Source of the DNA: Escherichia coli | GTDB lineage: Bacteria > Pseudomonadota > Gammaproteobacteria > Enterobacterales > Enterobacteriaceae | NCBI RefSeq assembly: GCF_024700885.2 | Contig: NZ_CP117016.1 | DNA: 64,000 bases | Reading direction: 5' to 3' (one strand) | Shown here: positions 1 through 4,496 of the stretch, piece after piece | Position numbering within the stretch: position 1 is the first letter of the stretch | Layout: the number at the start of each line of letters is the position of its first letter | Notes under the pieces: model-generated | Told to the model about the DNA's origin: nothing | Seen by the model: the letters and a program-made list of their open reading frames with translations, nothing else | Databases searched by the model: none | Position numbers and translations under genes: made by a program

Positions 1-1005
1 ACCCCAACAAATGAACCCCTATCGATTATCCGACTTATCAAAAATGCCTGTTTAAAATTATATAATTTGGCACATACCGCAACCAACTCCCCCCTTAAAC
101 CAGCTGGTCCGGATAATTCAGATAATCTCCTGTTCGAAAAGCTATTCTCCCCGTCAAAATTAATGACAATTATCGGTGATGAAATTCCTCTTATATCAGA
201 AAAACAGTCGCTTTCAAAGGTGCTTTTAAATGATAAGAATAATGAACTGAGTGATGGTACAAACTTCTGGGATAAAAATCGTCAATTAACCACGGATGAA
301 ATAGATTGCTATCTTCAGAAGATCGCCGCTAATGCAAAAAATACTCAAGTCAATTATCCTACTAGTCTCTACCTCCCCGATTCCAACAGCACTTACCTGG
401 AAATCGCTCTCAATGATAATATTAAGAGCGATCCATCATGGCCGAAAGCAGTCCAGTTATTCCCCATAAATACTGGCGGACACTGGATATTAGTTTCGCT
501 CCAAAAAATAGTTAATGAAAAAAACAACACACAACAAATAAAATGCGTCATATTCAACTCATTACGTGCACTAGGCCATGATAAAGAAAATTCACTTAAG
601 CGTGTCATTAATAGTTTCAATTCTAAATTCATTGGGGAAATGCCGAATAATGATAATATAACAGATCATTTAACTGAACCAGAGATAATATTTTTACATG
701 CCGATCTTCAGCAATACTTAAGCCAAAGTTGCGGTGCATTTGTGTGCATGGCAGCCCAGGAAGTGATTGAACAAAGGGAAAGCAATTCTGACAGCTCCCC
801 CTATACGTTATTAAAAAACTATGCTGACAGATTTAAAAAATATTCAGCAGAAGAGCAGTACGAAATTGATTTCCAACATCGACTGATAAACAGAAATTGT
901 TATTTAGATAAATATGGCGATGCACTAATCAATGCTTCTTATACACAATTAGAAAAAACACACTCACAACCCAAAAATAGAGCATCAGGAAAAAGAGTAA
1001 GTTAA
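1..1005 (+). CDS. elaD: ElaD-like deubiquitinase / Ulp1-family (C48) cysteine protease, 3' portion; reading frame is open to the window start so the N-terminus lies upstream
   Basis: ORF 67..1005 with frame open back to position 1; translation contains the GGHW and SCGAFVCM motifs typical of His/Cys protease triads; matches E. coli ElaD from memory; AT-rich codon usage. Confidence 0.85.
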
Positions 1006-1021
1006 CATTATTGTTAATCAA

Positions 1022-1055
1022 TTCGACCAATCAGCAAATATGCTGACTGGTCGAA
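1022..1055 (+). terminator. Stem-loop 17 bp after the elaD stop (15-bp arms, one mismatch, 4-nt loop); putative terminator without a strong T-tract
   Basis: Inverted repeat ttcgaccaatcagca / tgctgactggtcgaa read directly from the sequence. Confidence 0.35.
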
Positions 1056-1395
1056 CATAGTTTGCTAAAAAGTCATCACTGACTGATGCCAGTCACACCA
1101 TCCACCAGTTCAATCTACGGGTATTTCCAGCGTATCGCGGCACGCGATTTCTGGTCTGTTGATGTAGTGGATTGTAGTTGCTGACTTTTCTTACCCTCAG
1201 ATTTCTGCCCCCTGTCAATTCAATCTGCCAATAAATAACATAATTATATTTTTTTCTCATATGAATTCCTTTTTAAAATAGCGAACCCACTGTAAAAAAA
1301 TACTTTTTGTATATCTCTACCAACCGTAATAAAATAAACACTCACAACTCATTATAAATAATTATAAAATAACGCCTTTTATTGATAATTTACAT

Positions 1396-2370
1396 ATGAA
1401 AAAAATGACACCTCTTTATTTTATATCATTACTACTATCGCTTCCTTTTATTATTTTTTACCAACCTTGGGTCAATGCATTGCCGCCAACGCCCCGACAC
1501 GCAAGTCCTGAGCAATTAGAAAAAACAGTTCGTTATCTTACACAAACTGTACATCCACGTAGTGCCGACAATATTGATAATCTGAATAGGTCCGCAGAGT
1601 ATATAAAAGAGGTCTTTGTCAGTAGCGGTGCCAGAGTTACCTCGCAGGATGTCCCCATTGCGGGTGGCCCCTACAAAAACATTGTTGCTGATTATGGTCC
1701 TGCCGATGGACCGCTGATTATTATTGGTGCGCACTATGACTCTGCCAGCAGTTATGAAAACGATCAATTGACCTATACGCCGGGCGCGGATGATAACGCC
1801 AGCGGTGTGGCAGGATTACTCGAACTGGCACGTTTGTTACATCAGCAAGTACCGAAAACTGGCGTGCAGCTGGTCGCCTATGCGTCGGAAGAGCCGCCCT
1901 TCTTTCGTAGCGATGAAATGGGGAGCGCGGTACATGCAGCTTCGCTTGAGCGTCCAGTGAGATTAATGATAGCGCTGGAGATGATTGGCTATTACGACTC
2001 TGCGCCTGGTAGTCAGAATTACCCTTACCCGGCAATGTCCTGGCTTTATCCCGATCGGGGAGACTTTATTGCCGTGGTCGGCAGAATGCAGGATATCAAC
2101 GCCGTTCGTCAGCTAAAAGCGGCATTGTTGTCATCCCGGGATTTATCTGTTTATTCTATGAATGCCCCAGGGTTTATTCCCGGTATTGATTTCTCTGATC
2201 ACCTTAATTATTGGCAACACGATATTCCCGCCGTAATGATTACCGACACCGCTTTTTATCGTAATAAACAATACCACTTGCCCGGTGATACCGCAGACAG
2301 ATTGAATTATCAGAAAATGGCTCAGGTCGTGGATGGCGTTATCACCTTGTTATACAACAGTAAACAATAA
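1396..2370 (+). CDS. yfbL: M28-family peptidase (putative aminopeptidase) with N-terminal signal/TM segment
   Basis: 324-aa ORF; hydrophobic N-terminus; GAHYDS and DDNASG metal-binding motifs typical of M28 peptidases. Confidence 0.88.
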   Translation: MKKMTPLYFISLLLSLPFIIFYQPWVNALPPTPRHASPEQLEKTVRYLTQTVHPRSADNIDNLNRSAEYIKEVFVSSGARVTSQDVPIAGGPYKNIVADYGPADGPLIIIGAHYDSASSYENDQLTYTPGADDNASGVAGLLELARLLHQQVPKTGVQLVAYASEEPPFFRSDEMGSAVHAASLERPVRLMIALEMIGYYDSAPGSQNYPYPAMSWLYPDRGDFIAVVGRMQDINAVRQLKAALLSSRDLSVYSMNAPGFIPGIDFSDHLNYWQHDIPAVMITDTAFYRNKQYHLPGDTADRLNYQKMAQVVDGVITLLYNSKQ

Positions 2371-2468
2371 AATTTCTCGAGGAGGATCCAGAAAAAGCAA
2401 CATGCGCATTTTATTTTCCCTCGTCTGTTTTAAGATGCGAAACATGAAATTCAACGGAGGAAAAATAA

Positions 2469-2972
2469 ATGGGAATGATTGGCTATTTTGCAGAAATTGA
2501 CTCAGAAAAGATTAACCAACTTCTTGAGTCTACTCAAAAACCTTTGATGGATAATATACATGACACGCTTTCAGGATTACGCCGACTGGATATTGATAAA
2601 CGCTGGGATTTTTTACACTTTGGGCTGACAGGCACCTCTGCTTTTGATCCCGCGAAGAATGATCCGCTGAGTCGTGCCGTGCTTGGTGAACACAGCCTCG
2701 AAGATGGCATAGATGGCTTCCTGGGATTGACCTGGAATCAGGAGTTAGCCGCGACAATCGATCGCCTGGAATCACTGGATCGAAGTGAGCTGCGTAAACA
2801 GTTTTCCATTAAACGACTCAATGAAATGGAGATTTATCCGGGAGTGACCTTTTCAGAAGAGTTAGAGGGGCAGCTCTTTGCTTCGATCATGCTTGATATG
2901 GAAAAGCTGATTAGTGCGTATCGACGTATGCTGCGACAAGGGAATCATGCGCTGACGGTTATTGTTGGGTGA
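2469..2972 (+). CDS. yfbM: DUF1877-family protein YfbM
   Basis: 167-aa ORF matching E. coli YfbM from memory; purine-rich SD (ggagg) upstream of the ATG. Confidence 0.85.
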   Translation: MGMIGYFAEIDSEKINQLLESTQKPLMDNIHDTLSGLRRLDIDKRWDFLHFGLTGTSAFDPAKNDPLSRAVLGEHSLEDGIDGFLGLTWNQELAATIDRLESLDRSELRKQFSIKRLNEMEIYPGVTFSEELEGQLFASIMLDMEKLISAYRRMLRQGNHALTVIVG

Positions 2973-2987
2973 TGGGGTCAGGGCACC

Positions 2988-3020
2988 AAAAAAAACCGCC
3001 GAACATGTCGGCGGCTTTCT
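2988..3020. terminator. Bidirectional rho-independent terminator between convergent yfbM and nuoN
   Basis: A-run, hairpin ccgccga-acatg-tcggcgg, then T-rich tract. Confidence 0.6.
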
Positions 3021-3038
3021 GACTTACGAACTGACAGC

Positions 3039-4496
3039 TTACATCAGCGGCATTGCTAACCGCACAATGCTAATCAGCGGTTGTGGCCATACACCCAGCA
3101 CCAGTACCAACAGTGCAGAGATCAGCACCACGATACCGCCCGCGCTGTACTGCCAGTTTGATGGTGCATCGCGACCCGGTTGTTCCGGGGCGTGAAGATA
3201 CAAGCTCACAGCCACGCGCAGGTAGTAGTAGAGGCCGATTGCCGAACCGACAACCACGGCACCCACCAGCCACCACAAGTGTGCCTGGACACCGACCGCC
3301 AGCACGTAGAACTTACCAATAAAGCCCAGCGTCATCGGAATACCGGCCAGAGACAGCATCATCACCGTCATCACCGCCGCGAGGATCGGACGATGCCAGA
3401 ACAGTCCGCGGTAAGAGAACAGGGAATCAGCATCCGGGCCACGATACGGGCTGGACATCAGGCTGACCACGCCGAACGCGCCGAGGCTGCTGAACAGATA
3501 ACCGGCCAGGTAAACCCCTACCGCTTCCATCGACATCTCGCCGGTTTGCAGCGCAATCAGCGCCACCAGCAGATAGCCGAGGTGAGAGATAGATGAGTAA
3601 CCAAGCAGACGTTTGATATTGGTCTGGCTCAGCGCCATCAGGTTACCGAAGATGATAGAGGCAAAGGCGATAATCGCCAGCACCACGCGAATCGCTTCAC
3701 TGTCACCCACCGGAGCGTAAAGGAACAGACGCATCACCACGCCGAAGATAGCGATTTTGCTCGCCGTCGCCAGGAAAGTGGAAACCGGCGCAGGCGCGCC
3801 CTGGTATACGTCTGGCGTCCACAGGTGGAACGGCACCAGAGAGAGTTTGAAGCCAAGGCCAACAATCATCAGGCCGAAACCTGCCAGCAACAGCGGCTCG
3901 TTGAGCATACCGTCGCCGAGGTTTTTACCCAGCGCGACAAACGACAGGTCGCCAGACTGCGCATACACCAGCGCCATACCGAACAGCAGGAAAGAAGACG
4001 CTGCGGCAGAAAGGATAGTGTATTTGATACTGGCTTCCAGCGAACGTTTCTGGCGGAAAGCGTAACCGACCAGGCCAAACAGCGGCAAAGAGATCAGTTC
4101 AATACCGAGGAACAGAGACGCCAGATGGTTGGCATTCGCCAGCAGGATCCCGCCCAGCGCGGCAATTAACACCAACAGGTAGAACTCGTCCTTGTTGTCG
4201 TTATAGCCTTCAAGCCACGGGTAGGCGAAAGTACAGGTGGCGAGGCTCGCCAACAATACCAGCCCGGTGTAAAGCATGGCGAAACCATCAACGCGCATCA
4301 GCGGCGTAACGTCCATAGCGCCCGCCTGGCCGACAAACCAGAGCGAAACCAGCGCCGCGTTAAGCCCAATAACCGAGAGCGTAGCGTTGAGGAAATGATT
4401 GCGTCGCCACGCAATGGAGAGCATCACAACCACCACCGTCAAGCCGACGATCAGCAACGGTAGCAGTGCGATCAGGTTTTGTGGAGTTATTGTCAT
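3039..4496 (-). CDS. nuoN: NADH-quinone oxidoreductase subunit N
   Basis: 485-aa polytopic membrane ORF; last gene of the nuo operon; matches NuoN. Confidence 0.95.

Follow-up and report, generated by a model that had tools for sequence, protein, structure and literature searches.

Gene content between elaD and nuoN in an Escherichia coli strain: a yfbK deletion scar and a compact yfbM/nuoN junction relative to K-12

In Escherichia coli K-12 (NC_000913.3) the genes elaD, yfbK, yfbL and yfbM, then yfbN, yfbO, yfbP and nuoN, follow each other in this order (b2269-b2276), exactly as the first-pass annotation of the sequence studied here had given it. Other arrangements are found elsewhere. O26 carries elaD-yfbK-yfbL-yfbM-nuoN, and O157:H7 (e.g. 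NZ_CP064167) has elaD, a yfbK scar, a yfbL pseudogene, yfbM and nuoN. EC958 (phylogroup B2) and the divergent genome GCA_002965435.1 both show rbn-yfbK-yfbL-yfbM-nuoN; elaD is also reported to be missing from B2 (PMC12575377). The divergent Escherichia SCPM-O-B-8794 combines a different yfbK remnant with a compact yfbM-nuoN junction. In the reduced-genome strain DGF-298 the whole elaB-yfbP segment has been removed (PMC10652928), which fits the view that yfbK, yfbL and yfbNOP are dispensable and have repeatedly been lost or disrupted. A literature search yielded no paper on the yfbK/yfbNOP polymorphism itself.

The window analysed here, a stretch of 64,000 nucleotides from contig NZ_CP117016.1, starts within this region. 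Its first segment holds the 3' part of elaD, an AT-rich spacer, yfbL, yfbM, a short hairpin-bearing spacer and nuoN (Table 1), and the gene identities and coordinates given earlier all hold when open reading frames, annotation and the K-12 comparison are considered. The segment occupies the same position as in K-12 and shares with it orthologous elaD, yfbL, yfbM and nuoN, together with the probable terminator between elaD and yfbK and the hairpin of nuo. It differs in lacking about 1.55 kb of yfbK and a 2561-bp yfbNOP islet, so that the absence of yfbK and yfbN/O/P claimed in the first pass is borne out by alignment to K-12. Compared with O157:H7, the yfbK junction (spacer 93.8% identical) and the compact yfbM/nuoN spacer are the same, but yfbL is intact here whereas that of O157:H7 has suffered an extra internal deletion or frameshift. 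EC958 and GCA_002965435.1 share the compact yfbM/nuoN spacer and differ by their intact yfbK and missing elaD.

Table 1. Features of the elaD-nuoN segment, in window positions.
Feature	Position	Strand	Basis
elaD, 3' 1005 bp, ElaD/SseL-family deubiquitinase	1..1005	+	ORF, annotation, NCBIfam
Inverted repeat between convergent elaD and former yfbK, probable two-way terminator	1022..1055	.	Fold and conservation
yfbK 3' remnant, last 40 nt including stop codon	1076..1115	-	K-12 alignment and direct reading
yfbK 5' remnant, degraded and out of frame; start-codon complement 1258-1260	1116..1260	-	K-12 and multiple alignment
Divergent haplotype block: yfbK 5' remnant, yfbK/yfbL intergenic (promoter) region, yfbL signal-peptide codons	1136..1495	.	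Identity drop
yfbL, intact M28-family metallopeptidase with N-terminal signal peptide	1396..2370	+	324-aa ORF, RefSeq annotation
yfbM, DUF1877 / YfbM family	2469..2972	+	167-aa ORF; PF08974 on homologues
yfbM/nuoN 66-bp spacer with nuo-operon terminator hairpin	2973..3038	.	Fold, conservation across lineages
nuoN, last gene of the nuo operon	3039..4496	-	485-aa ORF

We are highly confident that the segment represents the region from rbn to the 3' end of nuo in its most frequent E. coli form, with two unrelated differences from K-12: an old deletion of yfbK, and a yfbNOP islet that was never received. Of 5426 complete E. coli genomes, 2478 (45.7%) carry the two compact junctions at once, as counted with a split query that can bridge neither a yfbK nor a yfbNOP insertion, and no other arrangement is as frequent. 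Because the complete-genome collection is biased to clinical and laboratory strains, percentages given here are not population frequencies; phylogroups were assigned only through known strains. The ancestral Escherichia order would have been rbn-yfbK-yfbL-yfbM-nuoN. Subsequently elaD would have been gained in non-B2 E. coli. About half of the species would then have lost yfbK, with further decay of yfbL in many of the yfbK-deleted genomes; in the window both yfbL and yfbM are intact. The compact layout is ordinary strain-to-strain polymorphism of accessory genes, and its significance beyond bookkeeping is small. K-12 is a poor reference at this locus, where its yfbNOP genes are a minority insertion; to describe other strains as 'reduced' turns the direction of change around.

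The annotated 1224-bp coding sequence in a 100% identical genome (NZ_CP023386) places the start of elaD 219 bp before the window. Its product scores 322.9 bits against NCBIfam NF008812 (ElaD/SseL family; cut-off 250) and is 86.8% identical to its K-12 counterpart at the amino acid level (92% in nucleotides, that is, about 8% divergence); the gene has a G+C content of 36%. Amino acid identity to K-12 amounts to 93.8% for YfbL, 98.8% for YfbM and 100% for NuoN. The mature part of YfbL is nearly the same as in K-12, the differences clustering in residues 4-18.

The spacer between elaD and yfbL had been described as 390 bp of AT-rich non-coding sequence. Its length and base composition (34% G+C) are correct, but both ends of yfbK lie inside it, as a search of this interval for remnants, suggested at the time, made clear: 40 nt from the end of the gene and ~125-145 nt from its start are kept. 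Window positions 1006-1115 correspond to K-12 locus positions 7926-8035 with 94.5% identity (K-12 yfbK ends at 7996), and 1136-2973 align with 9592-11439. The junction is located at about 1115/1116, with bases 1116-1135 aligning weakly, and a 55-aa minus-strand reading frame (1093-1260) represents the decayed yfbK start fused across the scar. Judged from these alignments, the absence of yfbK is a true internal deletion of ~1.55 kb. Such an old event would have taken nearly all of the gene except for 40 nt at its 3' end and a decayed 5' stub. The probable terminator between the convergent elaD and yfbK would have stayed behind in the spacer, and so would the promoter region of yfbL. The inverted repeat after elaD folds at -20.7 kcal/mol (z -4.5) on the plus strand and -26.8 kcal/mol (z -7.2) on the minus strand, is kept in K-12, O26 and O157, and probably acts as a two-way terminator between elaD and the former yfbK. 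Across the 5426 complete genomes the yfbK interior was found in 2540 and the deletion junction is contiguous in 2580 (47.5%).

A separate observation concerns the 360 bp that run from the deletion into the signal-peptide codons of yfbL. With yfbK-bearing alleles this block shares only about 66-77% identity. Against K-12, the figure for the 260 nt upstream of yfbL is 66% and that for yfbL nt 1-100 is 77%, compared with 93-99% per 100-nt bin (95% overall) in the rest of the gene. Identity to the window's block is bimodal in the genome set: bands of at least 80% contain about 2795 genomes, and 2536 lie between 60 and 80%. In the former, sampled rows have at least 87.7% identity and lack yfbK; in the latter they have 72-75% and carry it. 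Among the 40 sampled rows the linkage between block type and yfbK absence is complete. Such tight linkage of the divergence to the loss of yfbK makes the deletion allele look old or imported.

The deletion allele may not have been formed in place. It could have recombined in from a divergent Escherichia-like donor, or be a very old retained allele, and have brought along another promoter and signal-peptide segment for yfbL. The low identity of the block to all yfbK-bearing alleles beside an otherwise well conserved yfbL argues for this, as do its sharp right-hand boundary near yfbL nt 100, the two identity groups and their linkage to yfbK absence. Moreover, the 260 nt upstream of yfbL are more divergent than an E. 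coli yfbK-positive allele is from that of another Escherichia species (71-74%), and the nearest block seen (74-82%) is that of SCPM-O-B-8794, which also lacks yfbK. On the other hand, no donor was found, loss of constraint could have sped up divergence in AT-rich pseudogene and intergenic sequence, and parts of the AT-rich alignment, at 66% identity, are uncertain. We regard this origin as tentative; it refines our preferred explanation, an old internal deletion of yfbK, and does not replace it.

In a more far-reaching version, E. coli would carry the yfbK-deleted allele at about 50% frequency as a haplotype of imported or trans-species origin, which couples the loss of the vWA-domain protein YfbK (with a lipoprotein-type signal sequence) to a replaced promoter and signal peptide of the secreted M28 peptidase YfbL. 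We consider this doubtful. If true, it would suggest that YfbK and YfbL form a functional pair on which balancing or lineage-specific selection acts, with later decay of yfbL in many deleted genomes including O157:H7. In any case, a sharply bounded, about 30% divergent block tied to the yfbK deletion and split ~50:50 in the species is of modest population-genetic interest.

At the other end of the segment, K-12 has 2561 bp (locus positions 11440-14000, without counterpart in the window) in place of window positions 2974-2990. Neither the K-12 alignment nor protein comparison revealed any similarity to yfbN, yfbO or yfbP between yfbM and nuoN in the window. The suggestion of a variable accessory junction beside the distal end of nuo, with fewer genes in this strain than in K-12, is supported. 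Next to the yfbK figures above, yfbNOP is found in 1015 of 5426 genomes (18.7%), and 985 of these 1015 are at least 99% identical to K-12. The associated idea of an unusual, reduced strain fails, since the compact form is the commonest and yfbNOP a minority insertion. The 66-bp yfbM/nuoN spacer, including the ~17 bases absent from K-12, is kept in O157:H7, O26, EC958 and three divergent Escherichia genomes, and is contiguous in 4212 of 5426 genomes (77.6%). On this side the compact arrangement thus appears to be the common ancestral state, which the first-pass annotation had named as the finding that would speak against its own proposal.

We infer from these comparisons that yfbNOP is an insertion in K-12 and that the lineage of the window never had yfbN, yfbO or yfbP. 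In K-12 and a low-diversity group of relatives, the islet would have entered after the stop codon of yfbM and before the nuo terminator. The comparisons behind this polarity were made with B2 and three divergent Escherichia genomes. Outgroup sampling was limited by a strict contig scan with exact YfbL peptide patterns, which returned only two loci; in addition, a search for YfbM homologues gave essentially only Escherichia and Shigella proteins, so that Salmonella and others are unusable for polarity. No direct repeats or target-site duplications were seen at the yfbNOP boundaries.

The opposite polarity, in which the eight-gene K-12 layout is the reference state and the strain lost yfbK and yfbNOP by reductive deletion, holds for yfbK, both ends of which remain. 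For yfbNOP it is largely refuted, and as a whole we find it very improbable. The spacer is without any yfbNOP remnant, B2 as well as divergent Escherichia species have kept the ~17 bases missing from K-12, and the islet is restricted to a minority of genomes with almost no diversity. Furthermore, the G+C content of the islets (38-44%) is below that of nuoN (57%), and the same site takes other cargo in other strains, namely a variant islet and insertions of the IS200/IS605 and IS3 families. Some age is nevertheless given to the islet by Escherichia sp. MOD1-EC7003, which the GTDB representative set places outside E. coli and in which a yfbN homologue (93.5% amino acid identity) adjoins yfbM; the islet therefore also occurs beyond the K-12 group and is too old for a very recent gain. 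The left end of the MOD1-EC7003 islet matches the ETEC6335 variant islet and not that of K-12. Searches of K-12 YfbN, YfbO and YfbP against NCBIfam, PADLOC and Pfam gave TPR repeats in YfbP only and no defence-system match, and the variant-islet protein annotated as SMI1/KNR4 likewise had no defence-system match in NCBIfam and PADLOC.

An assembly or window artefact can be dismissed as the source of the compact arrangement, given that window positions 1-3300 are 100% identical to at least 22 complete genomes that are independent of each other and come from water as well as from dogs, humans and chickens, and both junctions are common to thousands of genomes.

Finally, the 66-bp spacer had been called a bidirectional terminator. 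Its length is correct and the hairpin is real, with a stem at 2996-3002 / 3008-3014 that is preceded on the plus strand by A8 and followed by a T-rich stretch. A simple promoter/terminator consensus scan did not report the nuo hairpin and gave counts no higher than shuffles, and in an Rfam scan of 1-3300 no family reached its gathering score (best 16-24 bits against 34-100, chance level). The pattern TGATGG(G/T)GTCAGGGC(A/G)CC…A-run…CCGCCGAACATGTCGGCGG is common to E. coli lineages and divergent Escherichia, with small differences directly before the A-run. On the minus strand, that of nuoN, the fold (-26.4 kcal/mol, z = -4.4) is followed by U8, which fits a nuo terminator as far as sequence and predicted structure go. 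Termination in both directions is plausible but would be weaker for yfbM, because the 7-bp stem, when read on the plus strand, precedes only CUUUCU and the z-score of the whole spacer is -1.7.

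The layout of the window is the commonest in the species and represents no unusual reduction. In NC_000913.3 the order is elaD, yfbK (minus strand), yfbL, yfbM, yfbN (minus), yfbO, yfbP and nuoN (minus), exactly as in the first-pass annotation, and the coordinates and spacer lengths it gave for the window all proved correct by ORF listing and direct reading. Blastn aligns the window with the K-12 locus (extracted from NC_000913.3) in three collinear pieces. Between the last two, 17 bp in the window (2974-2990) stand against 2561 bp in K-12 comprising yfbN, yfbO and yfbP (yfbNOP), located directly past the yfbM stop codon and directly ahead of the A-run of the nuo terminator hairpin. 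Among the matches listed, at least 22 complete RefSeq E. coli genomes are 100% identical to window 1-3300, labelled there as ElaD/SseL-family deubiquitinase, yfbL, yfbM and nuoN.

Features of the window, K-12 and the comparison loci (L numbers)
Feature	Position	Strand	Size or identity	Basis or remark
elaD, 3' part	..1005	+		ORF listing, direct reading
elaD/yfbL spacer	1006-1395		390 bp, 34% G+C	
Inverted repeat	1022-1055		34 bp	near-perfect
yfbK 3' end	1076-1115	-	last 40 nt	stop-codon complement 1076-1078
yfbK 5' end		-	first ~125-145 nt	start-codon complement 1258-1260
Remnant ORF	1093-1260	-	55 aa	
Divergent block	1136-1495		~30% divergent	
yfbL	1396-2370		324 aa	ORF listing
yfbM	2469-2972		167 aa	ORF listing
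yfbM/nuoN spacer	2973-3038		66 bp	
nuoN	3039-4496	-		nuoM comes next
Window 1-1115	K-12 locus 6933-8035		92.3%	blastn
Window 1136-2973	K-12 locus 9592-11439		92.1%	blastn
Window 2991-3300	K-12 locus 14001-14310		96.8%	blastn
yfbK in K-12	K-12 locus 7996-9723	-		
Insertions at yfbM/nuoN site	L009 2808-3586; L010 7050-8407; L008 2924-5040			
Decayed yfbL	L007 3252-3869; L010 5725-6357			L007, O157:H7
Further reduced form	L015 3237-3683			MAG GCA_948620185.1
yfbN homologue, MOD1-EC7003	L003 11576-12673			locus seen ends before nuoN

Given the position of yfbK in K-12, the aligned pieces show that the window retains both ends of this gene, within the spacer that had been proposed as the place to look for remnants; about 1.55 kb of the interior is missing. 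The 55-aa minus-strand ORF is the decayed yfbK start read through the scar (the joined ends at about 1115/1116). Both strands of a near-perfect inverted repeat form strong folds (minus strand -26.8 kcal/mol, z -7.2). In K-12 its counterpart separates the converging genes elaD and yfbK; in the window it persists after elaD though the convergent partner is lost. In some strains yfbK is also interrupted by IS1.

The ElaD identity was confirmed at 322.9 bits against an NCBIfam cut-off of 250. In the 100% identical NZ_CP023386 the gene starts 219 bp upstream of window position 1, and the TTG at 67 is therefore a window-edge artefact rather than its start. Its G+C content is low (36% over window 1-1005) and it is unusually diverse in E. 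coli, with 91-94% nucleotide identity among the window, K-12, O26 and O157, and 86.8% amino acid identity between the window and K-12 products. The allele of the window is rare: only 27 of 5424 matching records reach at least 99% identity over 1-3300. Neither B2 nor any of the divergent Escherichia genomes examined carries elaD.

Comparison with these genomes bears on which state is ancestral. EC958 (B2) carries rbn-yfbK-yfbL-yfbM-nuoN without elaD, matching a published report that B2 lacks this gene (PMC12575377), and the divergent GCA_002965435.1 (87.5% nucleotide identity to the window in yfbM, 95% in nuoN) has the same order. In the divergent SCPM-O-B-8794, rbn is followed by a yfbK remnant unlike that of the window (its last ~48 codons), then by yfbL, yfbM and nuoN; in the even more reduced L015 genome, which lacks elaD and yfbK, just the final ~200 nt of yfbL come after rbn and before yfbM and nuoN. 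yfbK appears to be ancestral, with at least two independent losses, one in E. coli and another, at different breakpoints, in the SCPM lineage. After yfbM, these four genomes, O26 and O157:H7 share what is essentially one spacer sequence (TGATGG(G/T)GTCAGGGC(A/G)CC…A-run…CCGCCGAACATGTCGGCGGCTTTCT, with small differences just ahead of the A-run). This near-uniformity argues that the compact yfbM-nuoN junction is ancestral and that yfbNOP in K-12 would be an insertion replacing about 17 bases.

The first-pass annotation had seen a reduced gene set at a variable accessory junction distal to nuo, while allowing that the compact arrangement might be the common ancestral state. The junction is indeed variable and yfbK truly deleted, but yfbNOP appear to be extra in K-12, and on the yfbM-nuoN side the compact state does seem the ancestral one; the observation was accurate, its interpretation half right.

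Frequencies were counted over 5426 complete E. coli genomes. The yfbK interior is present in 2540 (46.8%) and the deletion junction of the window contiguous in 2580 (47.5%), its carriers including O157:H7 and many other strains of animal, human and environmental origin. yfbNOP DNA occurs in 1015 genomes (18.7%), 985 of them at least 99% identical to K-12, and the compact yfbM-nuoN junction is contiguous in 4212 (77.6%). Both compact junctions are found together in 2478 genomes (45.7%), based on a query that placed window 666-1585 and 2524-3440 end to end. With it, the rule for joining aligned pieces bridges neither a yfbK nor a yfbNOP insertion, so that the required coverage of at least 80% demands both junctions. 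Rough class sizes, from 60 evenly spaced records of this search, are 27 yfbK-deleted and compact, 17 with yfbK and compact (including ST131 and O26 strains), 11 K-12-like with both yfbK and yfbNOP, and five other. Variation of this kind is ordinary for a pan-genome and can already be seen in thousands of annotated genomes, so its interest is low.

An unusually divergent, sharply bounded block, linked to the yfbK deletion, starts at the deletion junction and reaches approximately nucleotide 100 of yfbL; it takes in the 5' stub of yfbK, the region upstream of yfbL and the codons of the YfbL signal peptide. Against the K-12, O26, EC958 and MOD1-EC7003 alleles, identity is 66-67% over the 260 nt upstream of yfbL, 76-80% over yfbL nucleotides 1-100 and 89-99% per 100-nt bin thereafter (93-99% for K-12 alone), giving 94-95% over full-length yfbL; protein differences are limited to signal-peptide residues 4-18. 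By block identity two groups stand out among the 5426 genomes: about 2795 in the bands of at least 80% (sampled rows at least 87.7%, without yfbK) and 2536 in the 60-80% band (sampled rows 72-75%, with yfbK). The upstream divergence (66% identity) exceeds that between the E. coli yfbK-positive allele and another Escherichia species (71-74%), which suggests that the deletion allele is either very old or imported from an unsampled relative; no donor of the block was found. Alternatively, faster decay of unconstrained AT-rich sequence would account for the divergence.

In O157:H7 and many other yfbK-deleted strains yfbL carries a further ~340-bp internal deletion or frameshift and is called a pseudogene. 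The extra deletion shortens the span by ~340 bp in 20 of the 27 yfbK-deleted, compact rows, where the annotation of yfbL reads either frameshifted pseudogene or 'hypothetical protein'. Judged from sampled rows, yfbL is intact as in the window in the upstream-block bands of at least 90% (about 756 genomes) and decayed in the 80-90% band (about 2039). Stepwise decay of the yfbK-yfbL pair is suggested, with yfbL still intact in the window.

The yfbM-nuoN spacer had been described as a bidirectional terminator. The nuoN transcript (minus strand) forms a stem-loop followed by eight U (-26.4 kcal/mol, z = -4.4, matched by 0 of 200 shuffles), and the hairpin is clearly the nuo terminator. The plus strand has the identical 7-bp stem followed by CUUUCU (whole-spacer z = -1.7); termination of yfbM transcripts as well is plausible. 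Rfam families gave no match in either spacer (1006-1395, 2973-3038).

The yfbM-nuoN spacer is also a repeatedly used insertion site. ETEC6335 holds a variant islet here (SMI1/KNR4-family protein, yfbN-like and yfbO-like genes). Escherichia sp. MOD1-EC7003, outside E. coli proper and without elaD, shares the left end of this variant rather than that of K-12, with a yfbN homologue adjoining yfbM (93.5% amino acid identity to K-12). An IS200/IS605 element lies within the A-run just ahead of the nuo hairpin, one carrier being 99.2% identical to the window, and ISEcB1 (IS3-family) likewise occurs at this site.

As for function, YfbK has a predicted vWA domain and lipoprotein-type signal sequence, YfbL is a predicted M28 peptidase with signal peptide and YfbM a putative DUF1877 protein. 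Searches of Pfam, NCBIfam and PADLOC matched no family for YfbN and YfbO, and TPR repeats only for YfbP. In DGF-298, a viable strain with a reduced genome, the entire elaB-yfbP segment has been deleted (PMC10652928).
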